Positions 45,907-58,601 of a stretch of DNA of 64,000 nt are shown here, one piece after another. The stretch lies in the NCBI RefSeq assembly GCF_003018255.1, contig NZ_CP027440.1; one strand, given 5' to 3'. The position numbers were made by a program, and so were the translations under genes. The notes under the pieces were generated by a model, which saw nothing but the letters and a program-made list of their open reading frames with translations, was not told the origin of the DNA and searched no databases. This stretch comes from Escherichia coli (lineage in GTDB: Bacteria > Pseudomonadota > Gammaproteobacteria > Enterobacterales > Enterobacteriaceae). The number at the start of each line of letters is the position of its first letter. Within the stretch, counting starts at the first letter, position 1.

Positions 45907-46004
45907 AGTCGCTTACCACTTATAAAGATTAATTATAAATATATAATCAATTTTATTTTTAAACCAGTTAGTCGTAACCTTATGCCCGGTTAAAGGAGAG
46001 GGTT

Positions 46005-47054
46005 ATGACGAATATCACCTTACAGAAACAACATCGTACACTGTGGCATTTTATTCCGGGGTTAGCCCTGAGTGCAGTTATCACCGGGGTCGCCCTGTGG
46101 GGTGGTTCCATTCCCGCGGTTGCGGGTGCCGGGTTTAGTGCCCTCACCCTCGCAATCTTGTTGGGGATGGTTTTAGGCAACACCATTTACCCGCACATCT
46201 GGAAAAGCTGTGACGGTGGTGTGCTGTTTGCCAAGCAATATTTATTACGTCTGGGTATCATTCTTTATGGCTTCCGTCTGACGTTCTCGCAAATTGCCGA
46301 TGTCGGTATCAGTGGGATCATCATTGACGTGTTGACGCTGTCCAGTACCTTCCTGCTGGCTTGCTTCCTGGGGCAGAAAGTGTTTGGTCTGGATAAGCAC
46401 ACCAGCTGGTTGATCGGTGCCGGTAGCAGTATCTGTGGTGCTGCCGCGGTACTGGCGACTGAGCCGGTAGTAAAAGCAGAAGCCAGTAAAGTAACCGTGG
46501 CTGTTGCAACCGTTGTTATCTTCGGGACCGTGGCGATTTTCCTCTACCCGGCGATATATCCGCTGATGTCTCAATGGTTTAGTCCGGAAACTTTCGGTAT
46601 CTACATTGGTTCTACTGTGCACGAAGTGGCGCAGGTGGTGGCGGCAGGTCATGCCATCAGCCCGGATGCAGAAAACGCAGCAGTTATTTCCAAAATGCTG
46701 CGCGTGATGATGCTGGCTCCGTTCCTCATCCTGCTGGCGGCGCGTGTTAAACAGCTGTCTGGGGCGAACAGCGGCGAGAAAAGCAAAATCACTATTCCGT
46801 GGTTTGCCATCTTGTTCATCGTCGTTGCCATCTTTAACTCGTTCCACCTGTTACCGCAGAGCGTGGTGAACATGCTGGTAACGCTGGATACCTTCCTGCT
46901 GGCAATGGCGATGGCGGCGCTGGGTCTGACCACTCACGTCAGCGCGCTGAAAAAAGCCGGGGCGAAACCTCTGCTGATGGCACTGGTACTGTTTGCCTGG
47001 CTGATTGTTGGTGGTGGTGCGATTAACTATGTGATTCAAAGCGTCATCGCATAA
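46005..47054 (+). CDS. yeiH: UPF0324 inner membrane protein YeiH
   Basis: 349-aa polytopic ORF with AAAGGAGAGGG RBS. Confidence 0.85.
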
Positions 47055-47127
47055 ACCACTACATCTTGCTCCTGTTAACCCGCTATCATTACCGTTTTCC
47101 TCCAGCGGGTTTAACAGGAGTCCTCGC

Positions 47128-47985
47128 ATGAAATACATTGGAGCGCACGTTAGTGCTGCTGGCGGTCTGGCAAATGCCGCAATTCGCGCCGCCGAAATCG
47201 ACGCAACCGCGTTTGCCTTGTTCACCAAAAACCAACGTCAGTGGCGTGCCGCACCGCTCACGACGCAAACCATCGATGAATTCAAAGCCGCCTGTGAAAA
47301 ATATCACTACACATCGGCGCAAATTCTTCCCCACGACAGTTATCTGATTAACCTCGGACATCCGGTTGCTGAAGCTCTGGAAAAATCGCGCGATGCCTTT
47401 ATAGATGAAATGCAGCGTTGCGAACAGCTGGGGCTTTCTTTGCTCAACTTCCACCCTGGCAGCCATCTGATGCAGATTTCAGAAGAGGATTGCCTTGCGC
47501 GTATTGCCGAATCCATCAACATTGCGCTGGATAAAACTCAAGGTGTCACCGCGGTGATTGAAAACACCGCCGGTCAGGGCAGTAACTTAGGGTTTAAATT
47601 CGAACATCTCGCAGCGATTATCGACGGCGTGGAAGATAAATCCCGCGTCGGCGTCTGCATTGATACCTGCCATGCTTTCGCTGCCGGGTATGATTTGCGT
47701 ACTCCTGCCGAATGCGAGAAAACGTTCGCTGATTTTGCCCGTATTGTAGGCTTTAAGTATCTGCGCGGGATGCACCTCAACGATGCGAAAAGCACCTTTG
47801 GCAGCCGCGTTGACCGTCATCATAGCCTCGGCGAAGGCAATATCGGTCATGATGCGTTCCGCTGGATCATGCAAGACGACCGTTTCGACGGCATTCCGCT
47901 GATCCTTGAAACCATCAACCCGGATATCTGGGCAGAAGAGATCGCCTGGCTGAAAGCGCAACAAACTGAAAAAGCGGTGGCCTGA
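47128..47985 (+). CDS. nfo: endonuclease IV (AP endonuclease)
   Basis: 285-aa ORF, xylose-isomerase-like TIM barrel with conserved His/Asp/Glu metal ligands. Confidence 0.95.
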
Positions 47986-47988
47986 TCG

Positions 47989-49077
47989 ATGAACGACAGG
48001 GAAAAGCAGATTCTTAAAATTTTACGGCGTAACCCGCTGATTCAACAGAACGAAATTGCGGATATGCTGCAAATCAGCCGTTCGCGCGTTGCGGCGCATA
48101 TTATGGATTTAATGCGCAAAGGCCGGATTAAAGGCAAAGGTTACATTCTCACCGAGCAGGAATACTGCGTAGTGGTGGGGACAATCAATATGGATATTCG
48201 CGGGATGGCGGATATCCGTTACCCGCAAGCGGCTTCTCATCCCGGTACCATTCATTGCTCGGCAGGCGGCGTTGGACGCAATATCGCCCACAATCTGGCG
48301 CTGTTAGGCCGCGACGTCCATTTGCTTTCAGTGATTGGCGATGACTTTTATGGCGAAATGCTCCTGGAAGAAACGCGCCGCGCCGGCGTGAATGTCTCCG
48401 GCTGCGTTCGTTTACATGGCCAAAGCACATCGACGTATCTGGCAATTGCCAATCGAGACGATCAAACCGTGCTGGCGATTAACGATACCCATCTGCTGGA
48501 TCAGTTGACACCGCAACTACTGAACGGGTCGCGCGATTTACTTCGTCATGCGGGCGTGGTACTTGCTGATTGTAACCTGACAGCCGAGGCGCTGGAATGG
48601 GTCTTTACCCTCGCTGATGAAATCCCGGTGTTTGTCGATACCGTTTCAGAATTCAAAGCGGGCAAAATCAAACACTGGCTGGCGCATATTCACACCCTGA
48701 AACCCACTTTACCGGAGCTGGAAATTTTATGGGGACAGGCGATCACCAGCGATGCTGACCGTAATGCCGCAGTGAATGCGTTGCATCAGCAAGGCGTTCA
48801 GCAACTGTTTGTTTATTTGCCCGATGAGTCAGTTTATTGCAGCGAAAAGGATGGAGAGCAATTTTTGCTGACAGCGCCAGCGCATACGACAGTAGACAGT
48901 TTTGGTGCTGACGATGGTTTTATGGCGGGCCTGGTATATAGCTTTCTGGAGGGAAACAATTTCCGTGACAGCGCCCGTTTTGCGATGGCCTGCGCGGCAA
49001 TTTCACGCGCCAGCGGCAGCTTAAACAACCCTACCCTGTCTGCCGATAACGCGCTTTCATTAGTGCCGATGGTGTAA
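47989..49077 (+). CDS. yeiI: PfkB-family sugar/nucleoside kinase with N-terminal winged-helix domain, YeiI
   Basis: 362-aa ORF; N-terminal HTH (ILKILRRNPLIQQNEIADMLQISRSRV) fused to ribokinase-like fold (GGVGRNIA); paralog of psuK. Confidence 0.85.
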   Translation: MNDREKQILKILRRNPLIQQNEIADMLQISRSRVAAHIMDLMRKGRIKGKGYILTEQEYCVVVGTINMDIRGMADIRYPQAASHPGTIHCSAGGVGRNIAHNLALLGRDVHLLSVIGDDFYGEMLLEETRRAGVNVSGCVRLHGQSTSTYLAIANRDDQTVLAINDTHLLDQLTPQLLNGSRDLLRHAGVVLADCNLTAEALEWVFTLADEIPVFVDTVSEFKAGKIKHWLAHIHTLKPTLPELEILWGQAITSDADRNAAVNALHQQGVQQLFVYLPDESVYCSEKDGEQFLLTAPAHTTVDSFGADDGFMAGLVYSFLEGNNFRDSARFAMACAAISRASGSLNNPTLSADNALSLVPMV

Positions 49078-49082
49078 CAATG

Positions 49083-49118
49083 TTGCCGGATTCGACGCTT
49101 GACTACATCTTATCCGGC
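49083..49118. repeat. degenerate REP-like palindrome between yeiI and nupX
   Basis: TTGCCGGAT...ATCCGGCTC inverted repeat. Confidence 0.4.
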
Positions 49119-49132
49119 TCATAACTCGCGCA

Positions 49133-50383
49133 CTACGCTAAGCCAATAAAGAATCCTGCAATGGTTGCACTCATCAGGTTAGAAAGTGTCGCCGCCGCCA
49201 GCGCGCGTAAACCAAGCTGGGCGATTTCCGGTGCACGGTGTGGCGCAACCGCAGAAAACGCCCCCACCACCACCCCGATAGAACCAAAGTTAGCGAAACC
49301 GCACAACGCGAAGGAAATAATCGCCACGGTTTTAGCATCCAGAGTGCCAGCCGTTTGCAGATAGGGTGAGAAATTGAGGTAAGCGACAAATTCATTTATT
49401 GCCAGTTTCTGTCCAATCAAACTCCCGGCAAGATTCGCATCACTCCAGTCAACACCCATTACCCACGCCAGTGGGGCCAGCAGGTAACCTAAAATGGACT
49501 CCAGCGAGGCATGTTCAAAGCCAAACCAGCCGCCAACGCCGCCGATAATACCGTTAATTAACGCAATGATGGCGACAAATGCCATCACTACTGTCGCCAC
49601 ACCTGCGGCGATTTTCAGCCCGGTCATTGCCCCTGTCGCAGCGGCTTCAATAATGCTTTTTGGCGGTGTTTCGGTGAAAGAGAGGTTATTAAAGGAAACC
49701 TGCGAAGATTCTGTTGCCGGGCTTAACAGGCGGGCAAACAAGATCCCGCCGGGGATCGCCATTAACGATGCCGCCAGCAGATATTCCACAGGCACGCCCA
49801 GTGCGGCGTAACCAATCATTGTCGAACCAGCAATCGAGGCCATCCCGCTACAAATCGCTGTAAATAATTCATTGCGATTCAGACGATTGATAAAGGGTTT
49901 GACGATTGCCGGAATTTCGTTTTGCCCGAGGAAAATGGTAGTGACCGCGACGAATGACTCGATCTTGCTGATATTCAATGCTTTCTGGAAGATACCGCCG
50001 AGAATGCGAATTAAGATCCCCATCACACCGATGTAGTAGAGAATACTCACCAGTGCTGTAACGAAGATAATTGCCGGTAATACCCTGAAACCAAAGATAA
50101 ATCCTGCGCCATCAAATAAGGTATCCATTTTTGGTCCGACCAGAGAACCAAAGATAAATGCGCTACCTGCATCGCTGTACGCCATCACTTTATGCACGCC
50201 AAAAGCGACTTTTTCTGCGACCCAACGCCCTGGTGGTAACCAAAGCATAATGCCGCCAATCACGACCTGTAACACTAACGCCGCGCCAACGGTACGCAGG
50301 CTGATCTTCTTCTTGTTTACTGACAGCAAAAACGCAATTGCCAGCAATACCACCATTCCCAGAACACTTCTCATGACATCCAT
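49133..50383 (-). CDS. nupX: NupC-family nucleoside permease NupX
   Basis: 416-aa polytopic ORF; close paralog of the psuT ORF in this window. Confidence 0.9.
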   Translation of the reverse strand: MDVMRSVLGMVVLLAIAFLLSVNKKKISLRTVGAALVLQVVIGGIMLWLPPGRWVAEKVAFGVHKVMAYSDAGSAFIFGSLVGPKMDTLFDGAGFIFGFRVLPAIIFVTALVSILYYIGVMGILIRILGGIFQKALNISKIESFVAVTTIFLGQNEIPAIVKPFINRLNRNELFTAICSGMASIAGSTMIGYAALGVPVEYLLAASLMAIPGGILFARLLSPATESSQVSFNNLSFTETPPKSIIEAAATGAMTGLKIAAGVATVVMAFVAIIALINGIIGGVGGWFGFEHASLESILGYLLAPLAWVMGVDWSDANLAGSLIGQKLAINEFVAYLNFSPYLQTAGTLDAKTVAIISFALCGFANFGSIGVVVGAFSAVAPHRAPEIAQLGLRALAAATLSNLMSATIAGFFIGLA

Positions 50384-50408
50384 AGTTATTATCTCTTCAT
50401 GTCATTTT

Positions 50409-50436
50409 GGGCGACGGCTTTCTGCCCATCAGAAAT
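50409..50436 (-). promoter_or_regulatory. conserved leader hairpin motif upstream of nupX (copy 1)
   Basis: plus-strand GGGCGACGGCTTTCTGCCCATCAGAAAT shared 27 of 28 with the psuT leader; mRNA stem GAUGG/CCGUC. Confidence 0.35.
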
Positions 50437-50482
50437 AGCCGGGCCTGCATCTTGCGATACTGTCCCGGCTTGTTATCAACAC

Positions 50483-51424
50483 TTAATGGGTTTTGATGTA
50501 GCCGCGCACGCACTCTTCGACTAATCCCCAGAACCAGTCGGTATCAATAGTGATGCCGACTTTGGTATTGGCGGGCTTGCCAAGAACGCCCAGCTCGTCG
50601 CAGACCGTACGCCCGTAGCAAGGGCCGCTGTTAACGTCCACTTCGACGTACATCTCCTGGGTTTTAATGCCATCAGGGTTAATCAGATAACCGATGCAGG
50701 TGGCGTCATGCACCGGGCCGCCAGCCAGGCCGTAGTTTTCGAACTGCGTTTTTAGAGTGAAATTCATGATGTCGCTGAACAGCTCTCCGGCGGGGCCGCC
50801 TACCCTTTCCATCCGAGCAATCACGTCCGGGGTGCAAACAGTCTGGTTGGTGAGATCGAGGCCCATCATCACCAACGGAACGCCGGAGGTGAACACCACG
50901 CGTGCGGCTTCCGGGTCAGCAAAGATGTTGAACTCGGCAGATGGGGTGAAGTTGCCAGTACCGTAAGCGCCGCCCATCAGCACAATTTCACGGATTTTCG
51001 GCAGGATCGCGGGTTGCATACGCATTGCCACCGCGATATTTGAAAGTGGGCCAACCGGCACCAGAGTGATATCGCCATCGCTTGCCATCAGGGTATCGAT
51101 GATATATTTCACCGCATGAGTGCTTTCTGCCTGGCGGGTCAGCGGCTCGAATACCGGGCCATCCAGTCCGGTTTCACCGTGAATATTATCGGCAACGATT
51201 TGTTGACGCATAATGGGCTGTGGCATCCCCGCATAAACCGGAACATTAATCTCCAGTTTCTGGCAAACATTCAGGCCATTAATTAATGTTTTATCAAGCG
51301 TCTGATTACCCGCCACAATGGTGATACCTAATAAATCTATTGCCGGATGTTTCGCTGCCATCATTATGGCAATAGCATCATCATGACCCGGATCACAATC
51401 CAGAATAATTTTTCTCTTTTCCAT
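50483..51424 (-). CDS. rihB: pyrimidine-specific ribonucleoside hydrolase RihB
   Basis: 313-aa ORF with IU-nucleoside hydrolase DxDxxxDD motif (DCDPGHDDA). Confidence 0.93.
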
Positions 51425-51592
51425 TGTTTATTTCCTCTGTTTCCAGTTGCGTTATTTTTTCTACAGCAAAGAAAATTCGACCGGGCCGATGATTGAATCT
51501 TAACAACAGCGTAAGTATGCTAAATATGAGAAATCTCATAGCGGATAAACATCGTGAAAGAAATCCACAATAATGACCTTAAGCAGCAATTG

Positions 51593-52252
51593 ATGAGTGA
51601 ATCTGCGTTTAAGGATTGCTTTTCAACGGATGTTTCAGCCGATACGCGGCTGTTTCATTTTTTAGCGCGTGACTACATTGTGCAGGAAGGGCAACAGCCG
51701 TCATGGCTGTTTTATCTGACGCGAGGCCGTGCCAGGCTTTACGCCACGCTTGCTAATGGTCGCGTGTCGCTGATCGATTTCTTTGCCGCTCCCTGTTTTA
51801 TTGGCGAGATTGAGTTAATCGACAAAGACCATGAACCGCGTGCGGTGCAGGCTATTGAAGAGTGTTGGTGCCTTGCGCTCCCTATGAAACATTACCGCCC
51901 GCTGTTATTAAACGACACGCTATTTTTACGAAAACTCTGCGTCACCTTAAGTCATAAAAATTATCGTAATATTGTTTCTTTAACTCAGAATCAATCATTT
52001 CCGTTAGTGAATCGCCTGGCAGCTTTTATATTACTCTCGCAGGAAGGTGATCTTTATCACGAAAAGCATACGCAAGCGGCAGAGTATTTAGGTGTTTCTT
52101 ATCGACATCTTTTATATGTTCTCGCGCAATTCATTCACGACGGTTTATTAATTAAAAGCAAGAAAGGGTATCTCATTAAAAACAGAAAGCAGTTGTCAGG
52201 ACTGGCACTGGAGATGGACCCGGAAAATAAATTCTCAGGGATGATGCAGTAA
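51593..52252 (+). CDS. yeiL: CRP/FNR-family transcriptional regulator YeiL
   Basis: 219-aa ORF from ATG 51593 (MSESAFKD); cNMP-binding-like fold and C-terminal HTH; track GTG 51554 rejected. Confidence 0.85.
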
Positions 52253-52273
52253 AAATTATTTGCAATAGAGCGA

Positions 52274-52313
52274 TTGCCGGATGTGACGCTTAATAAGCGC
52301 GTACATCCGGCAA
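52274..52313. repeat. REP-like palindrome between yeiL and psuT
   Basis: TTGCCGGATGTGACGCTTAATAAGCGCGTACATCCGGCAA. Confidence 0.45.
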
Positions 52314-52319
52314 TGACAC

Positions 52320-53570
52320 TCAAGCTAAACCAATAAAGAACCCGGCAATGGTCGCGCTCATCAGGTTGGAAAGCGTTGCTGCTGCCAGCGCCCGTAAACC
52401 AAGCTGGGCGATTTCCGGTGCGCGTTTTGGCGAAATAGCCGAAAATGCCCCAACGACAACACCGATAGAACCAAAGTTAGCAAAACCACAAAGCGCAAAG
52501 GAGATAATCGCAATGGTTTTCACTTCCAGCGTGCCGCCCGTTTGCAGGTATGGGGAGAAACTCAGGTAAGCGACGAATTCGTTAATCGCCAGTTTCTGCC
52601 CAATCAGGCTACCCGCAAGATTGGCATCACTCCAGTCCACACCCATGATCCACGCCAGCGGTGCCAGCACATAGCCAAAAATACTTTCCAGAGAGGCATT
52701 GGCGAAACCAAACCAGCCGCCAATTCCGCCGATAATGCCGTTGATCAGCGCAATAATTGCGACAAACGCCATTACAACCGTCGCCACACCAGCGGCGATT
52801 TTCAGCCCGGTCATCGCACCGCTCGCCGCCGCTTCGATAAAGCTTTTTGGCGGCGTTTCGCTGAACGACAGATTTTCAAATGTCACCTGCGAAGGCTCGG
52901 TGGCTGGGCTAAGAATACGTGCAAACAAAATACCACCAGGGATCGCCATCAGCGATGCCGCTAACAGGTAGTCAATTGGTACGCCCATTCCGGCATAACC
53001 AATCATCATCGAACCAGCAATGGACGCCATCCCGCTACAAATTGCGGTAAACAACTCGTTGCGATTCATGCGATCGATAAACGGTTTAACGATCGCCGGG
53101 ATCTCATTTTGCCCGAGGAAAATAGTGGTAACCGCAACAAAAGATTCGATTTTGCTGATGTTGAGGGCTTTCTGGAAAATGCTGCCAAGGATGCGAATCA
53201 GCAGCCCCATCACGCCAATGTAGTACAGCAGACTGATGAGCGCAGTGACGAAGATAATCGCCGGAAGTACGCGAAAGGCGAAGATAAAACCCGCACCGTC
53301 AAAGAGGACATCCATTTTCGGCCCGACCAGCGAACCAAAAATGAAGGCGCTACCGGCATCACTGTAAGACATCACTTTATGAACGCCTAATGCCGCCTGT
53401 TCTACCGCCCATTTTCCTGGTGGAAAATAGAGCATGATTCCGCCAATGGCGATTTGTAGCAGCAACGCGGCTCCAACCGTGCGCAAACTGATGCTCTTTT
53501 TATTCACTGACAACAGAAATGCTATTGCCAGTAACACCACCATCCCCACAACACTTCTCATTATATCCAT
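52320..53570 (-). CDS. psuT: NupC-family pseudouridine/nucleoside transporter PsuT (YeiM)
   Basis: 416-aa polytopic ORF; close paralog of nupX. Confidence 0.9.
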   Translation of the reverse strand: MDIMRSVVGMVVLLAIAFLLSVNKKSISLRTVGAALLLQIAIGGIMLYFPPGKWAVEQAALGVHKVMSYSDAGSAFIFGSLVGPKMDVLFDGAGFIFAFRVLPAIIFVTALISLLYYIGVMGLLIRILGSIFQKALNISKIESFVAVTTIFLGQNEIPAIVKPFIDRMNRNELFTAICSGMASIAGSMMIGYAGMGVPIDYLLAASLMAIPGGILFARILSPATEPSQVTFENLSFSETPPKSFIEAAASGAMTGLKIAAGVATVVMAFVAIIALINGIIGGIGGWFGFANASLESIFGYVLAPLAWIMGVDWSDANLAGSLIGQKLAINEFVAYLSFSPYLQTGGTLEVKTIAIISFALCGFANFGSIGVVVGAFSAISPKRAPEIAQLGLRALAAATLSNLMSATIAGFFIGLA

Positions 53571-53636
53571 ATTGATTTTCCCTTCATGCCAGTAAACCCG
53601 GCGTCAGCGCCAGGTTTTGGTATGCTTGATGAGTAC

Positions 53637-53664
53637 GGGCGACGGCTTTCTGCCCGTCAGAAAT
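53637..53664 (-). promoter_or_regulatory. conserved leader hairpin motif upstream of psuT (copy 2), overlapping psuG stop
   Basis: plus-strand GGGCGACGGCTTTCTGCCCGTCAGAAAT; mRNA stem GACGG/CCGUC. Confidence 0.35.
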
Positions 53665-54602
53665 TAACCCGCGAGACGCTGGTATTCTTTGGCTATTTCA
53701 CTCGCCAGGATGGCGTTGTTGAACACCAGCTGGATGTTGGATTTCAGGCTGTCACCGCCGGTCAACTCAGCAACGCGCGCCAGCAGGAATGGCGTACTTT
53801 CTTTACCAATAACACCCTGCGCTTCAGCTTCAGCTACCGCCTGATCGATCGCCGCATTGATAGTGTGTTCCGGCATAGCAAACTGTTCCGGAATCGGGTT
53901 CGCTACCACGAGGCCACCGTTCAGCCCGCTTTGCCATTTCACCGCCATTGCACGGGCAATTTCGCTGGCGCTGTCGAGACGAATGCTCACGTCAAACGGG
54001 CTGGTGCGGCAGAAAAACGCAGGCAGCGCTTTGGTCTGATAGCCAATTAGCGGTACACCGAAAGTTTCTAAATATTCGGTAGTTAAGCCTAAATCGAGAA
54101 TAGATTTCGCCCCGGCACAAACGACGGTGACATTGGTGTGCGCCAGTTCTTGCAAATCGGCAGAAATATCGAAGGTATGTTCCGCCCCGCGATGCACACC
54201 ACCAATTCCCCCGGTGGCAAATACTTTAATTCCGGCAAGCGCCGCAATAATCATCGTTGAAGCAACGGTGGTTGCACCATTTTTTCCGGCGGCAACAACA
54301 AAAGGTAAATCGCGACGACTAACTTTGGTCACGTTATGCCCTTCACGACCCAGCAATTCAATTTCTTCTTTGCTTAAACCCACTTTCATCACGCCGCCAA
54401 TAATGGCGATAGTGGCAGGTACAGCGCCCTGTTTACGAATAGTTTCTTCAACTTCAATTGCGGTCTGGGCATTTTGTGGGAACGGCATCCCGTGAGAAAT
54501 AATGGTCGATTCCAGCGCCACAACCGGTTTTTTGTTTTTTAAAGCGTCCTGCACTTCCGGGGAAATTTGTAATAATTCAGGGGAAATTTTTAATTCAGAC
54601 AT
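53664..54602 (-). CDS. psuG: pseudouridine-5-prime-phosphate glycosidase PsuG (YeiN)
   Basis: 312-aa ORF, IndA/PsuG family; overlaps psuK stop. Confidence 0.92.
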   Translation of the reverse strand: MSELKISPELLQISPEVQDALKNKKPVVALESTIISHGMPFPQNAQTAIEVEETIRKQGAVPATIAIIGGVMKVGLSKEEIELLGREGHNVTKVSRRDLPFVVAAGKNGATTVASTMIIAALAGIKVFATGGIGGVHRGAEHTFDISADLQELAHTNVTVVCAGAKSILDLGLTTEYLETFGVPLIGYQTKALPAFFCRTSPFDVSIRLDSASEIARAMAVKWQSGLNGGLVVANPIPEQFAMPEHTINAAIDQAVAEAEAQGVIGKESTPFLLARVAELTGGDSLKSNIQLVFNNAILASEIAKEYQRLAG

Positions 54603-55531
54603 TCTGCGTTCTCCACTAACGATATAACGTTGGCAATCGATAAATCGGGGTTATTGGTGTATTCACAGGAGAGCGCCATTGACGAACATCCCTGTGCGAA
54701 ACGAACAGATTCGGCAAACGGCATTCCGTCTACCCAACACGAAGCAAGTCCCGCCATCATGGCATCGCCCGCTCCGGTAACATTAATGACATTGGTTTTG
54801 ATCGGCGCAGACCAACCACTTTCACCGCTGATATCACTGTAATAAACGCCGTCGCCGCCCATGCTCAATACCAGTCGGTTCAGGCCATGTTGATGGAACC
54901 AGGCAGCAACTTTTGCCACATCTTCACGCCCTGACAAAGCAATCCCACTCAGGGTTTCCGCTTCAAGGCGGTTTGGCTTGAGAGTGTGGATTTGATTTAG
55001 ACGGTCGCGCACTTTGACACATTTCCACGCGGAAACAGGATCGACAAATACGGGTACGTTGGCGGCATTATCCAGAATCCATGCCAGTGCCTCTTCACTG
55101 ATATTACAGTCCGCGACAATGACCTTTGCCCTCTGAATAAATTCACCGTGCTGTGCGAGATATTCAGCTGTAATAGCGTTGCTAATATTCATGTCATTTA
55201 TAGCAACCAGCATTTCACCGGTATTATCGAGTAATGATAAATAGCTCGACGTATTTTCTCCCGGCACAATCAGGCATTTATCGACATAAACACCAGATTG
55301 ATTGGTTTGCGTTAGCAGCGATTGACCATAAAAATCACTGCCTACGGCGCTCAGTAGCCAGGCTTTATTCCCCAGCAACGCCAGGTTTTGTGCAATATTG
55401 CGCCCTACTCCACCAGGCGTAAACTTTATTTTACCTGGATTTGAATCCGCATAATTTAATGATTCATGTGAATATCCGGCGACATCAATATTCGCCGAAC
55501 CTATAATTACGACATAATCCTTTTCGCGCAT
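54590..55531 (-). CDS. psuK: pseudouridine kinase PsuK (YeiC), PfkB family
   Basis: 313-aa ORF with ribokinase-like motifs (GGVGRNIAQN, GAGDAMMAG). Confidence 0.9.
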   Translation of the reverse strand: MREKDYVVIIGSANIDVAGYSHESLNYADSNPGKIKFTPGGVGRNIAQNLALLGNKAWLLSAVGSDFYGQSLLTQTNQSGVYVDKCLIVPGENTSSYLSLLDNTGEMLVAINDMNISNAITAEYLAQHGEFIQRAKVIVADCNISEEALAWILDNAANVPVFVDPVSAWKCVKVRDRLNQIHTLKPNRLEAETLSGIALSGREDVAKVAAWFHQHGLNRLVLSMGGDGVYYSDISGESGWSAPIKTNVINVTGAGDAMMAGLASCWVDGMPFAESVRFAQGCSSMALSCEYTNNPDLSIANVISLVENAECLN

Positions 55532-55598
55532 AGCACGTCCTCTGGTAAAAAATTACCAACCCTGTCAATCCACAAGAATATAGATACTGCAAAGACGG

Positions 55599-55634
55599 TT
55601 TAAACATGTGTTCATATTTAAACATGTGCTCATA
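55599..55634. promoter_or_regulatory. tandem 18-bp direct repeat upstream of psuK (candidate regulator-binding site)
   Basis: TTTAAACATGTGTTCATA immediately followed by TTTAAACATGTGCTCATA, then an inverted partial copy (GCATGTTTTAC); 70-100 bp upstream of psuK ATG. Confidence 0.35.
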
Positions 55635-55771
55635 GTATGCATGTTTTACGTAAAGTAAATTACCGCCAGAGATGCAAAATGGGCAGATTTGAGCAGGCTC
55701 ACAAAACGCGATTAAATGCCTGAATTATAAAAACGGGGAATTTGTGACGGAATGCACAGAACAGGAACACT

Positions 55772-55797
55772 AAAAAAGGGCAGAAATTAATCTGCCC
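55772..55797 (-). terminator. rho-independent terminator about 160 nt downstream of fruA
   Basis: minus-strand hairpin GGGCAG-N8-CUGCCC followed by U6 run. Confidence 0.6.
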
Positions 55798-55916
55798 TTG
55801 AGGAAATAACCTTAGTGTTTGATGAAAGTTTCAGGTTTCCACTAAAAGATAAAACCATTTAAATTCATAAAATTACATTCACAAACCGGTCATTCTCTTT
55901 GCGCGCATCAAATGTT

Positions 55917-55941
55917 CCAGGGCAGGAAATTTCTGCCCTGG
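55917..55941 (-). terminator. hairpin immediately downstream of fruA stop (weak terminator or RNA stability element)
   Basis: 9-bp stem CCAGGGCAG/CTGCCCTGG with 7-nt loop; only a short U tract follows on the minus strand. Confidence 0.4.
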
Positions 55942-55954
55942 AACACACCTTTTA

Positions 55955-57646
55955 TTACGCTGCTTTTGCTACTGCGTCCACTTCCGGACGTTTCAGGAAG
56001 GCATAGGCCAGACCCGCCACCAGCGTACCGGCAATAATGGCTACCAGGTAACCCAGTACCGGCGTAATAGCGCCAGGGATCAGCAGAACAAACAGACCAC
56101 CGTGCGGTGCCATCAGTTTCGCACCAATCGCCATTGAGATTGCGCCAGTCAGCGCCCCACCAACGATACAACACGGCAGCACACGCATCGGATCACGAGC
56201 AGCAAACGGAATTGCACCTTCCGAAATAAAGCACAGACCAAGAACCAGAGCGGCTTTGCCACCTTCCTGCTGCGCTTTGTCGAATTTGCGACGCGCCACC
56301 ATTGTTGCCAGACCCATTGCCAGCGGTGGCACCATACCTGCCGCCATAATCGCCGCCATCGGGCCATAGGTTTGAGTACTCAGCAGACCCACACCGAATG
56401 CGTACGCTGCTTTATTTACCGGACCGCCCATGTCAGTACACATCATGCCACCGAGGATCGCCCCCAGCAGAACCGCATTCGCAGTCCCCATGGTCTGCAG
56501 CCAGTGAGTCAACCCTTCGAGAATGCCAGCAACCGGTTTACCGATCAGGTAGATCATCGCCAGACCGACCACCAGACTGGAAATTAGCGGAATGATCAGG
56601 ATCGGTTTCAGCGCCTCCATACTCTGTGGCAGTTTCAGTTGCGTACTGATTAACTTCGCAATGTAACCAGCCAGGAAGCCCGCAATAATACCCCCAATGA
56701 AGCCAGAACCGGTGCTGACCGCCAGCATACCCCCAATCAGACCCGGCGTGAGACCCGGACGATCGGCAATGGAGAAGGCAATGTAACCTGCCAGTACCGG
56801 CACCATCAGCGCAAAGGCTGAACCACCACCAATCTGCATCAGCGCCGCTGCCAACGTACCCGGCTCTTTAAACGCTTCGATACCAAAAGCAAAAGAAAGC
56901 GCGATACACAGACCACCTGCAACGACCATCGGCAGCATGTAAGAGACGCCCGTCAGCAAGTGACGGTAAGCGCCTGCACCCTCTTTCTTACCTTCAGTGG
57001 TCGCTGTTTGAGCTTTGCCCGCCGGTTCATACGGCGTTGCTTCAGCAACCGCTTTATCCAGTTCCTGCGCGGTTTTCTTCAGCGCCAGACCGGTAGAGGT
57101 GCGATACATCGGTTTACCAGCAAATTTCGCCAGATCCACTTCGATATCTGCCGCCACAATCACCAGATCCGCTGCGGCTACTTCTTCAGGGGTGATCGCA
57201 TTACCCGCGCCAACAGAACCACGGGTTTCAACTTTCACCCACCAGCCACGTTTTTTCGCTTCGGTTTCAATGGCTTCAGCCGCCATAAATGTGTGTGCTA
57301 CGCCAGTCGGGCAAGCTGTCACCGCAACTACGCGTTTCGGACCGCTGGTGGCAACTGGTGCTGTCGCAGCGACCGGTGCAGTGTAAGGTTTCGCATGGCC
57401 TTTGGCTTCACTCAGGAACAGCTCAGGGTGCGCAACTGCCCGGGAAATATCGCCCAGCCAGACATTTTTACCGTTCAGCGCGCTGTCGTTCGGGATGGAA
57501 TCACCGAGAACAATCGCCATTTCAGCGTCGTTCGGATTGTCGATGATTTCCAGTTTTGCTTTTCGCGCCGCCGCGCCCAGCAGGGTCTTCGCCATATAGG
57601 CGCGTGCCTGACCGAGATTAGCGTCAATAATCAGCAGCGTTTTCAT
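55955..57646 (-). CDS. fruA: PTS fructose-specific EIIB-prime-BC component FruA
   Basis: 563-aa ORF with duplicated IIB domain (VTACPTGVAHT) and IIC membrane domain. Confidence 0.95.
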   Translation of the reverse strand: MKTLLIIDANLGQARAYMAKTLLGAAARKAKLEIIDNPNDAEMAIVLGDSIPNDSALNGKNVWLGDISRAVAHPELFLSEAKGHAKPYTAPVAATAPVATSGPKRVVAVTACPTGVAHTFMAAEAIETEAKKRGWWVKVETRGSVGAGNAITPEEVAAADLVIVAADIEVDLAKFAGKPMYRTSTGLALKKTAQELDKAVAEATPYEPAGKAQTATTEGKKEGAGAYRHLLTGVSYMLPMVVAGGLCIALSFAFGIEAFKEPGTLAAALMQIGGGSAFALMVPVLAGYIAFSIADRPGLTPGLIGGMLAVSTGSGFIGGIIAGFLAGYIAKLISTQLKLPQSMEALKPILIIPLISSLVVGLAMIYLIGKPVAGILEGLTHWLQTMGTANAVLLGAILGGMMCTDMGGPVNKAAYAFGVGLLSTQTYGPMAAIMAAGMVPPLAMGLATMVARRKFDKAQQEGGKAALVLGLCFISEGAIPFAARDPMRVLPCCIVGGALTGAISMAIGAKLMAPHGGLFVLLIPGAITPVLGYLVAIIAGTLVAGLAYAFLKRPEVDAVAKAA

Positions 57647-57662
57647 TATGCCTCTCCTGCTG

Positions 57663-58601
57663 TCAGTTAAAAGGTTGTAAGTCGACGCGCGCCATCATTG
57701 CGGCCAACTGCGGACGATCGGTAATACCCACATTGCTTTGACTTACCGCCAGGGCTGCAACAGCTGTCGCCAGACGCAGTGTGTGTTCACTGGATTCACG
57801 CATCAGCAAGCCATAAATCAGGCCACCAACCATAGAATCCCCTGCGCCAACGGTGCTTACGACATCGACTGACGGTGGTTTGGCGATCCATTCGCCGGAG
57901 GCATTAACCCAAAGCGCGCCTTCGGCACCCAGTGAAATAACGACATGCGCGATACCTTGTTCACGCAGCGCATGCGCAGCTTCAATCACATCTTTCATTT
58001 CAGGCAGTTTACGGCCTGCCCAGATTTCCAGCTCGCGGCGGTTAGGTTTCACCAGCCACGGTGCCGCTTTCAAACCTGCTACTAACGCTTCACGGCTACT
58101 ATCAAAGATAATGCAAGGACACTGACTACGCAGGCGAGTCATCCAGTCGGTGAACGCTTCCGGGCTGACGCCTGACGGTAAGCTTCCGCTGACACAGACC
58201 ATATCGAACTGACCGAGCCAGCTCAGAGAATCAGTCACAAAGCGTTCCCAGTCGGCGGGGGTAACGTCAAAACCCGAGAAGTTGAAGTCGGTCACTTCGC
58301 CGTCTTTTTCCGTCAGCTTAACGTTAATTCGGGTGCGCCCCTGTACAACCTGGAAACGGTTGGCAATGCCCAGCTCGCTGAACAGTTGCTGAAAACCATC
58401 CTGATTGTCTTTACCGAGGAAGCCACCAACGGTGACATCAATTCCCAGGTCTTTTAATACTTTGGCCACGTTGATGCCTTTACCCGCCGCATGCAGACCG
58501 GTGGTTTTCACCAGGTTCACTTCGCCGCGTTCAATTTCCGGGCAGAAACCAACAAGGTCATAAGCCGGATTAAGGGTGATAGTAGCAACACGTCTGCTCA
58601 T
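57663..58601 (-). CDS. fruK: 1-phosphofructokinase FruK
   Basis: 312-aa PfkB-family ORF (GAGDSMVGG motif). Confidence 0.95.
   Translation of the reverse strand: MSRRVATITLNPAYDLVGFCPEIERGEVNLVKTTGLHAAGKGINVAKVLKDLGIDVTVGGFLGKDNQDGFQQLFSELGIANRFQVVQGRTRINVKLTEKDGEVTDFNFSGFDVTPADWERFVTDSLSWLGQFDMVCVSGSLPSGVSPEAFTDWMTRLRSQCPCIIFDSSREALVAGLKAAPWLVKPNRRELEIWAGRKLPEMKDVIEAAHALREQGIAHVVISLGAEGALWVNASGEWIAKPPSVDVVSTVGAGDSMVGGLIYGLLMRESSEHTLRLATAVAALAVSQSNVGITDRPQLAAMMARVDLQPFN

Follow-up and report, generated by a model that had tools for sequence, protein, structure and literature searches.

A proposed split regulator-kinase with an inserted nucleoside cassette: the yeiI-psuK locus of Escherichia coli and YeiI as a candidate psuKGT repressor

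We analyzed a 64,000-nt stretch of Escherichia coli DNA (contig NZ_CP027440.1; hereafter the window), focusing on yeiI, which encodes a kinase-like protein with an N-terminal winged helix, and on its neighbors up to the pseudouridine operon psuKGT. Open reading frame (ORF) calling, together with the RefSeq annotation of a 99%-identical E. coli region, identified nfo (47128-47985, plus strand), yeiI (47989..49077, plus; 362 amino acids), nupX (49133..50383, minus), rihB (50483..51424, minus), yeiL (51554..52252, plus), psuT (52320..53570, minus), psuG (53664..54602, minus) and psuK (54590..55531, minus; 313 amino acids), with fruA adjoining beyond psuK on the minus strand. Among 5,426 complete genomes, those most similar to the window matched it at 99.3% identity. 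The seven genes from yeiI to psuK lie where an earlier note on this DNA, written from the sequence alone, had placed them. We propose that they make up two nested units of different origin. The older would be a pseudouridine catabolic unit, consisting of psuK-psuG-psuT and the convergent yeiI, and between yeiI and psuT would sit a second unit, nupX-rihB with the divergent yeiL. YeiI itself is a predicted regulator of psuKGT.

The family assignments of the neighboring proteins were clear. NupX and PsuT, the latter encoded by the third gene of the psuKGT operon, are CNT (NupC-family) transporters that pass the TIGR00804 cut-off of 442 bits (499 and 518 bits, respectively). Both match vcCNT and CNTnw (PDB 3TIJ, 5L26) over their full length (E about 1e-125 to 1e-131, with CNTnw matched at about 1e-131), and they fall within the CNT subclade of these two proteins (PMC11241209). 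RihB is a pyrimidine ribonucleoside hydrolase (IU_nuc_hydro; NCBIfam NF007417, 727 bits), and PsuG, annotated in RefSeq as pseudouridine-5′-phosphate glycosidase, is an Indigoidine_A protein (441 bits). [quoted passage not shown] PsuK, the pseudouridine kinase, has no HTH, scores 713.8 bits with NF007355 and matches the solved structures of E. coli pseudouridine kinase (PUKI).

The earlier note had read this region as an ancient segmental duplication of a nucleoside-salvage module, diverged in substrate, and part of that reading stood. The two transporters, which it had singled out for their equal length of 416 codons and near-identical N-termini, are identical at 367 of 416 residues (88%) in a gap-free alignment, so that the likeness extends beyond the N-terminus over the whole length. 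YeiI and PsuK do share a ribokinase core, with 121 of 307 residues identical (39%, E = 2e-76) over the PfkB region and 38% identity in the comparison that included the fusion proteins described below. Two of the three gene pairs are therefore paralogous, both duplications are old, and the transport profiles of NupX and PsuT differ: NupX transports uridine and cytidine at low efficiency, while PsuT transported none of uridine, cytidine and xanthosine, its link to pseudouridine resting on operon membership (PMC11241209). What did not stand was the idea of one duplicated module. RihB and PsuG show no similarity (E = 2.4). Order and orientation differ as well: psuK precedes psuG-psuT and is read in their direction, and yeiI is found downstream of nupX, pointing towards it. 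The paralogous pairs are separated by a wide identity gap (88% for the transporters vs. 39% for the kinases), no operator box is common to the two promoters, and the taxonomic distributions of the genes differ.

These distributions were apparent from a one-genome-per-species scan for YeiI, which gave 20 usable loci, 18 of them intact and from other species. In all 18, yeiI was present, adjoined psuT-psuG-psuK and was convergent on it. At 12 of these loci (in E. albertii, several Citrobacter and Enterobacter, Buttiauxella, Kluyvera, Phytobacter ursingii and Kosakonia) yeiI and psuT converge directly, and nupX, rihB and yeiL are all missing. The nupX-rihB-yeiL cassette was found at the remaining six, in three genera, and in this sample was confined to E. 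coli and its closest relatives, one Citrobacter amalonaticus and Phytobacter diazotrophicus; wherever yeiL occurred, rihB and nupX occurred with it. In Affinibrenneria, a yeiI-like gene, a transporter gene, psuG and an HTH-less psuK stand together, again without the cassette, in a wholly different chromosomal neighborhood. Because 12 of the 18 loci lack the cassette, we conclude that yeiI very probably belongs with psuKGT and that nupX-rihB-yeiL is a separate cassette. The grouping of yeiI, nupX and rihB in the earlier note is thus neither an evolutionary nor a probable regulatory unit, and YeiL, which the note had placed between two modules, belongs to the inserted cassette and is no hub between them. 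The spacer between yeiI and psuT in E. albertii is nearly the same sequence as that between yeiI and nupX in E. coli, from which it follows that nupX occupies the ancestral psuT slot. With the hydrolases unrelated, the gene order non-collinear and most loci cassette-less, a single segmental duplication is not the simplest account. As a model in which kinase, hydrolase and transporter were copied together and came to share YeiL as regulator, it is largely refuted, and we regard it as improbable.

The psu unit has decayed in some lineages. In Escherichia sp. MOD1-EC7003 psuT and psuK are gone and psuG is shortened, one C. amalonaticus strain is without psuT, and in C. koseri NCTC10786 yeiI is disrupted, psuT is gone and psuK is truncated. 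Within E. coli, the alleles of yeiI and of psuK-psuG-psuT fall into two classes that diverge deeply. The synonymous divergence (dS) of B2 genomes (ATCC 11775, ST131) from the window and K-12 is 0.92 for yeiI, 1.33 for psuK, 0.69 for psuG and 0.56 for psuT, vs. 0.01-0.20 at nfo, rihB and yeiL, which lie next to or between the divergent genes; the B2 alleles are nearer to those of E. albertii (dS 0.33-0.49). The matching depth of this divergence had suggested co-adaptation of yeiI and psuK alleles, a notion weakened by a recombinant haplotype in strain 7_26_9A (L029) that joins a B-type yeiI to an A-type psuK.

We compared the transporter genes in detail. The nucleotide sequences of nupX and psuT are 79% identical, with 53% identity at third codon positions, a dS of about 1.24, a nonsynonymous divergence (dN) of 0.076 and a dN/dS ratio of about 0.06; the longest identical run is 29 nt and there are no conversion tracts. 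The pair is an old duplicate under strong purifying selection, and the dS, third-position identity and short longest run rule out a recent duplication or gene conversion. In a neighbor-joining tree NupX branched at the base of the Enterobacteriaceae PsuT group, apart from the PsuT of its own species, and E. coli PsuT grouped with the PsuT of genera lacking the cassette. Only four positions carry differences fixed between the NupX and PsuT clades (A56V, V112I, T188M, L195M). We propose that nupX is an old psuT duplicate now standing in the ancestral psuT slot.

The 5′ limit of this duplication could be placed to the base. Detectable homology between the transporter segments begins with the final base of the stop codon of psuG and stops short of both psuG and rihB, a further point against the joint copying of hydrolase and transporter. 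The limit is marked by a 28-nt leader block upstream of psuT (53637..53664, minus), which begins at that base, and which is matched at 27 of 28 positions by a block upstream of nupX (50409..50436, minus; ATTTCTGATGGGCAGAAAGCCGTCGCCC) with a 5-bp hairpin stem. Its core, GGGCAG...GTCGCCC, was kept in 13 sequences, with some covariation. The block, with its 5-bp stem and conserved 11-nt loop, was present in all sampled Enterobacteriaceae and had no Rfam match, and its near-identity in the two copies stands beside saturated synonymous sites in the genes themselves. The psuG-psuT spacer also holds a 10-bp stem-loop, AAACCUGGCG-CUGA-CGCCGGGUUU (53594..53617, minus), that is not present upstream of nupX. 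At the other end, the 3′ flanks of nupX (49078-49132) and psuT (52253-52319) both contain inverted repeats of the repetitive extragenic palindromic (REP) kind (GCCGGAT...ATCCGGC), which accounts for the weak similarity of these flanks. A search of positions 46000-58000 for known RNA families returned just three sub-threshold chance matches.

In B2-type genomes, nupX has an internal deletion of about 1.14 kb that leaves its two ends in place, with rihB and yeiL intact; the remnant in E. coli ATCC 11775 (L028 3090-3356) corresponds to window positions 49133-50383. Of 5,431 records, about 1,000 belong to the identity band in which the deletion haplotype occurs. A large fraction of E. coli genomes have nupX deleted.

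The cassette appears to carry its own control. The 130-bp divergent spacer between rihB and yeiL is well conserved across three genera and contains the palindrome TATGAGAAATCTCATA (51525..51540; ATGAG-N4-CTCAT), which is invariant in the cassettes of Escherichia, Citrobacter amalonaticus and Phytobacter, and whose N4 spacing we take to match that of FNR-type sites. Because this palindrome is conserved and the divergent arrangement is constant, we consider it a candidate YeiL site and YeiL a likely local regulator of rihB-nupX, acting apart from psuKGT. A role in nitrogen starvation after exponential growth has been proposed for YeiL (Anjum et al., 2000, cited in PMC3590769).

We then turned to YeiI. 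Its substrate, which the earlier note had described as not established, is still so described in effect, as papers from 2022 and 2025 list the protein as uncharacterized (PMC9061257; PMC12506659). YeiI contains an HTH_24 domain (PF13412, 43.3 bits against a cut-off of 21.9) and a PfkB domain (PF00294, 230 bits against 25.8). Over its full length (1-362) it passes the NCBIfam "sugar kinase" model NF007416 (814.3 bits, cut-off 561) and fails the pseudouridine-kinase model NF007355 (EC 2.7.1.83; 257.9 bits, cut-off 540). In the AlphaFold 2 model (mean predicted local distance difference test score, pLDDT, 92.5), the winged helix (amino acids 1-52; 47989..48144, plus) consists of helices 3-14, 20-27 and 31-43 and a wing, with pLDDT values of 82-96, and the core superposes on E. 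coli PUKI with a TM-score of 0.95 and a root-mean-square deviation of 2.0 Å over 307 residues. The model confirms the fold, which also matches ribokinases, and has no bearing on the activity of the altered site described below. Among the solved structures compared with it, none had a two-domain architecture of HTH and PfkB. The nearest characterized protein is E. coli PsuK/YeiC (EcPUKI; PDB 7VKP, 7VTD, 7VVA), which has the PfkB fold and shares its pseudouridine contacts with YeiI; YeiI differs in adding the 52-residue winged helix and in having GADD for GAGD and TLPE for NRLE.

These motif changes were examined in a YeiI clade of 49 sequences, reaching down to 57% identity, against 67 PsuK and HTH-PsuK sequences. 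In place of the NVTGAGD of PsuK, YeiI has DSFGADD (D303-D309; 48895..48915, plus), in which D308 stands at the anion-hole glycine and D309 is the retained catalytic aspartate. The Asp at the anion-hole position was present in 49/49 YeiI-clade sequences, and Gly in 67/67 of the comparison set. The NXXE motif (N187-R-L-E190-A191 in PsuK) is replaced by T240-L-P-E243-L244 (48706..48720, plus): the Asn has become Thr in 94% of the clade and Ala has become Leu, with the Glu kept. Altogether seven differences are fixed in the YeiI clade (M107T, M114T, N187T, A191L, N250D, G255D and L287R in PsuK numbering), and at least four of these fall at known active-site positions, G255 being the anion-hole glycine of GAGD, N187 the Asn of NXXE and M114 a residue lining the uracil pocket. 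The PUKI contacts to pseudouridine (N14, D16, S30′, Y97, N112, N143, K170) and the catalytic D256 are kept in YeiI, with M114 alone changed, to Thr. To judge from these motifs, the phosphoryl-transfer site of YeiI is remodeled, and the dN/dS ratio of yeiI, about 0.1, shows the altered site to be kept under selection and not decaying.

What the remodeled protein does can be read in more than one way. Machine-learning tools and some automatic annotations name it a pseudouridine kinase, which would make it a second, redundant enzyme; PUKI is indeed its nearest relative in sequence and fold, the base contacts are kept, and some sources give relatives of YeiI this name. Yet the curated pseudouridine-kinase model gives YeiI 258 bits against its cut-off of 540, and both GAGD and NXXE carry fixed substitutions. 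Moreover, a psuK mutant is unable to use pseudouridine, as stated in PMC12506659 with reference to Preumont 2008, and on that account YeiI is no substitute for PsuK. We judge redundancy very improbable.

A kinase with a changed substrate, for instance a modified nucleoside or a C-nucleoside other than pseudouridine, and possibly a regulator as well, is a stronger alternative, although we still think it unlikely. The altered site would in that case modulate catalysis without abolishing it. Asp309, Glu243 and the ribose contacts are kept, the strict conservation of the seven fixed changes would fit a new specific function, M114T and M107T lie near the base pocket, and the dN/dS of about 0.1 also counts in its favor. 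On the other hand, an Asp at the anion-hole glycine should disfavor the gamma-phosphate in the ribokinase family, and it occurs in only 2 of 114 HTH-PfkB representatives (see below). The base-reading residues S30′, N143 and K170 are unchanged, and synteny and operator tie YeiI to psuKGT and to no other pathway.

To place YeiI among its relatives, we searched 1.84 billion representative proteins for the combination of HTH_24 and PfkB, and found that proteins of this architecture, about 360 amino acids long, form a large and diverse family. Of 114 full-length representatives, nearly all keep the pseudouridine-specificity residues S30, N143 and K170, and nearly all keep canonical NXXE and GAGD. 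The fused gene stands first in a psu operon at eight sampled loci, indicating that the winged helix is part of the pseudouridine kinase in many bacteria. In Yersinia and Serratia, HTH-psuK is directly followed by psuG (with the usual 4-nt overlap) and then a CNT transporter gene, and in Photorhabdus, Pasteurella and two distant metagenomic organisms the HTH-PfkB gene is directly followed by psuG; none of the loci of these six has a separate yeiI. Conversely, every yeiI locus has an HTH-less psuK. At the loci seen, the two arrangements were mutually exclusive: a fused kinase without yeiI, or a helix-less kinase with it.

The sequence relationships were consistent with a common stock. The winged helix of YeiI is 71-73% identical to the N-terminus of the Yersinia and Serratia fusions, and 63-73% identical across the wider fusion set. 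The YeiI core is closest to the Yersinia and Serratia fusion cores (48-49%), and the PsuK core is 59-61% identical to those of Yersinia, Serratia and Pasteurella. The fusion proteins, known to us from Yersinia, Serratia, Photorhabdus, Xenorhabdus, Pasteurellaceae, Shewanella and uncultured bacteria, resemble YeiI in architecture, length and the AAACA-NN-TGTTT boxes described below; they differ in having canonical NXXE and GAGD and in heading a psu operon beside psuG, whereas YeiI is encoded apart and accompanied by a separate HTH-less kinase. Because the fusion proteins keep canonical motifs and head psu operons, they are probably both kinase and regulator; we found no characterized member among them. 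We also looked for a winged-helix remnant upstream of psuK in E. coli; tblastn with the helices of Yersinia and YeiI gave nothing significant.

In the psuK promoter region we identified a -35 hexamer TTTACT (55654-55659, minus) and a -10 hexamer TACTAT (55632-55637, minus) separated by a 16-nt spacer, giving a core promoter at 55632..55659, and upstream of it a CRP-like site TGTGAGCCTGCTCAAA (55688..55703, minus) centered about 70.5 bp upstream of the inferred transcription start. The core promoter is conserved in Type-2 promoters, and TGTGA-N6-TCA(T/A)A was found in all Type-2 psuK promoters, from which we infer a functional CRP site. Downstream lie two operator-like boxes of the AAACA-NN-TGTTT type (RAACAYRTGYTY): box 1, GAGCACATGTTT (55620-55631, minus), at about -6..+6, and box 2, GAACACATGTTT (55602-55613, minus), at +13..+24. 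They are 18 bp apart from start to start, with the same spacing in 14 promoters from nine genera, and cover roughly -6 to +24, over the core of a CRP-type promoter. All 14 Enterobacteriaceae psuK promoters share four elements, namely the CRP-like site, the -35 TTTACT, a -10 TAnnAT and the two boxes. An alternative psuK promoter suggested by a consensus scan (TTTAAA-16-TATATT) was rejected, as it is unconserved in other genera and conflicts with both the CRP-site distance and a mapped adaptive mutation.

That mutation comes from mouse-gut evolution experiments, in which an A-to-C change at NC_000913.2 position 2257444, between psuK and fruA, became fixed repeatedly; an A-to-C "psuKp" allele has also arisen repeatedly in long-term stationary-phase cultures. 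We derived the offset between MG1655 reference versions from three srlR mutations of the same paper, whose amino-acid changes are all reproduced by a shift of 1,978 and by no other. With this shift, the mouse-gut change maps to 55657, the third base of the -35 hexamer (a sense-strand T), and converts TTTACT to TTGACT. Its position on the hexamer supports our assignment of the psuK promoter and suggests that it is a -35 up-mutation, which is not how the papers describing the mutation explain it. A further suggestion is that, under those conditions, the wild type expresses psuKGT at a limiting level.

Between this promoter and the fruA gene we noted an orphan terminator-like hairpin with a T-run (55776-55799, minus), 5′ of the psuK promoter and about 115 nt 3′ of the fruA terminator (55913-55945). 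One RefSeq genome has a 48-codon hypothetical ORF annotated opposite this hairpin (L029 9228-9374), and a small transcript may arise there.

To examine the specificity of the boxes within the window, we trained a position weight matrix (PWM) without the E. coli and E. whittamii boxes. The two highest scores in the 64 kb fell on 55602-55613 and 55620-55631 (18.7 and 18.3 bits), the next best match scored 12.6 bits, and no box was found near rihB, nupX, yeiL or nfo/yeiI. For the loci of other organisms, the PWM was built from Enterobacteriaceae psuK-promoter boxes only. In Yersinia and Serratia, its best match in 21 kb lay just upstream of the gene for the fused kinase; in Affinibrenneria, where yeiI is a separate gene and psuK has no HTH, the best match in 17 kb was just upstream of psuK. 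In Photorhabdus and Pasteurella the second-best match was at the kinase gene, and at three distant HTH-PfkB loci the top match was there, with 19.0, 16.8 and 13.9 bits. By comparison, two HTH-less psuK-psuG loci without yeiI had no match upstream of the kinase. One sequence, CACATGTTTAAA, is identical in E. coli and Yersinia.

At the fused loci, the two boxes are immediately 5′ of what is likely the true start codon. In Yersinia and Serratia, the start called for HTH-PsuK (MFKNKQVS...) falls inside box 1 (L002/L003, L004/L005, 10001-10030); the true start is probably the Met of MTSREKQIL, nine codons downstream, as in Photorhabdus and YeiI.

Boxes and winged helix thus co-occurred in 14 Type-2 promoters, Affinibrenneria and seven HTH-fusion loci, which is an association and should be read as such. 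As the boxes track the winged helix, and YeiI is the sole E. coli protein carrying this box-associated helix, the simplest reading is that the winged helix recognizes the boxes, and YeiI probably binds the two in front of psuK. Binding by some other regulator, with the adjacency of yeiI incidental, has only a slim chance of being correct in our estimation. AAACA/TGTTT-type half-sites do resemble those of some other regulators, and yeiI has no box upstream of it. Against this, the boxes follow HTH_24-PfkB across very distant bacteria, where they lie directly upstream of the fused gene, and are missing at the HTH-less psuK-psuG loci without yeiI; and in the unit, in cassette-less genomes and in Affinibrenneria alike, YeiI is the only protein with such a helix.

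Taking these lines together, we favor, on balance, a split regulator-kinase with an inserted cassette, in which YeiI would be a pseudouridine-sensing repressor of psuKGT. YeiI would come from the same stock as the HTH-PsuK fusions that head psu operons elsewhere, and an ancestral bifunctional regulator-kinase would have been divided in Enterobacteriaceae into PsuK, without the helix and with canonical motifs, and YeiI, with the helix and a remodeled site. E. coli PsuK would have lost its helix and kept the boxes upstream of its gene. A YeiI dimer, formed through the PfkB lid as in PUKI, would bind the two boxes over the psuK transcription start and repress the CRP-dependent psuKGT promoter, until pseudouridine or its 5′-phosphate, bound in the kinase-like domain, released it. 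The switch could be the ligand-induced dimer closure known from PsuK crystals: in the PUKI structures, the dimer closes on pseudouridine, from about 66 to about 51 Å, by way of Ser30 in the partner subunit (PMC9061257), and Ser30 is conserved in YeiI. The data show which genes are present, their paralogy and synteny, the states of the motifs, and the conservation of the boxes with their association to the helix; DNA binding by YeiI, repression, the effector and a loss or change of its kinase activity are what we infer.

A bolder form of this proposal makes YeiI the first PfkB-fold "pseudokinase" transcription factor. An HTH-PsuK ancestor that autoregulated pseudouridine catabolism would have been split into an enzyme without the helix and a sensor-repressor, the substitutions G255D and N187T having disabled the transfer site of the latter. 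The closing of the kinase dimer on substrate would then have been reused as the allosteric switch releasing two operators spaced 18 bp apart. We put this forward tentatively, and incline slightly against it as stated.

Several observations weigh against the split-repressor proposal. In YeiI the catalytic Asp and every ribose contact are still in place, as is the NXXE Glu, and the protein may still be a kinase; the N-to-T change in NXXE is also seen in a few relatives that keep GAGD, and N250D equals the Asp that ribokinase has at that position. The gene begins 3 nt after nfo and lacks a box, a different regulator that recognizes AAACA/TGTTT half-sites may act at the boxes, and the HTH-less control loci number only two. 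In the phylogeny, for which all trees were neighbor-joining, PsuK and the fusion proteins formed a clade with 95% bootstrap support and YeiI fell outside it; the grouping of YeiI with PsuK and the fusion proteins received only 38-41% support, and the support for the placement of YeiI overall was 34-41%. Because the trees are of this kind and YeiI sits on a long branch, we do not date the split or specify its mode.

Enzyme folds reused as the sensors of transcription factors are already known, and our analysis suggests that YeiI would join them. In the ROK family, the repressors NagC and Mlc stand beside the kinases NagK and Glk, a sugar-kinase fold having been reused as a ligand sensor with an N-terminal HTH. 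The ROK proteins have a different fold from YeiI (ROK/actin-like ATPase, not PfkB/ribokinase) and no sequence relationship to it, so the analogy is one of mechanism only. NadR is a further example of a metabolic-enzyme fold serving as a transcription-factor sensor. In NrtR (PMC2330246) and the archaeal riboflavin kinase/regulator RbkR (PMC5397151), a domain from a metabolic enzyme is joined to a winged helix and regulates its pathway's genes; NrtR has a Nudix-like effector domain, and RbkR is described as bifunctional, as we propose for the HTH-PsuK ancestor. The folds and pathways of NrtR and RbkR are unrelated to those of YeiI, and to our knowledge no split into separate enzyme and regulator is described there. 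In our search of the literature we found no link of the pseudouridine kinase family to a DNA-binding domain, no regulator of psuKGT or psu repressor, no function for YeiI, and no earlier proposal of YeiI as the product of a split regulator-kinase. One paper (PMC6698644) names "YeiI" as a characterized LysR regulator, which appears to be a slip for YeiE. A 390-bp contig labeled Acinetobacter sp. A47 (L026) encodes a protein 99% identical to residues 178-306 of E. coli YeiI and is most likely assembly contamination.

For the biology of this locus, our results correct its modular reading, since nupX-rihB-yeiL is a separable cassette. YeiI is among the remaining genes of E. coli K-12 without a known function, and automatic tools mislabel it a pseudouridine kinase; the proposal made here would give it a specific role as psuKGT repressor, with a named operator (55602-55631), a promoter and a likely effector. 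Read as a -35 up-mutation, the recurrent adaptive change of the mouse-gut experiments would be accounted for as well. Control of pseudouridine catabolism is relevant to strains engineered to make the pseudouridine used in mRNA manufacture. If the proposal is true, the pair formed by PsuK and YeiI would be a natural example of a bifunctional enzyme-regulator resolved into two specialized paralogues.

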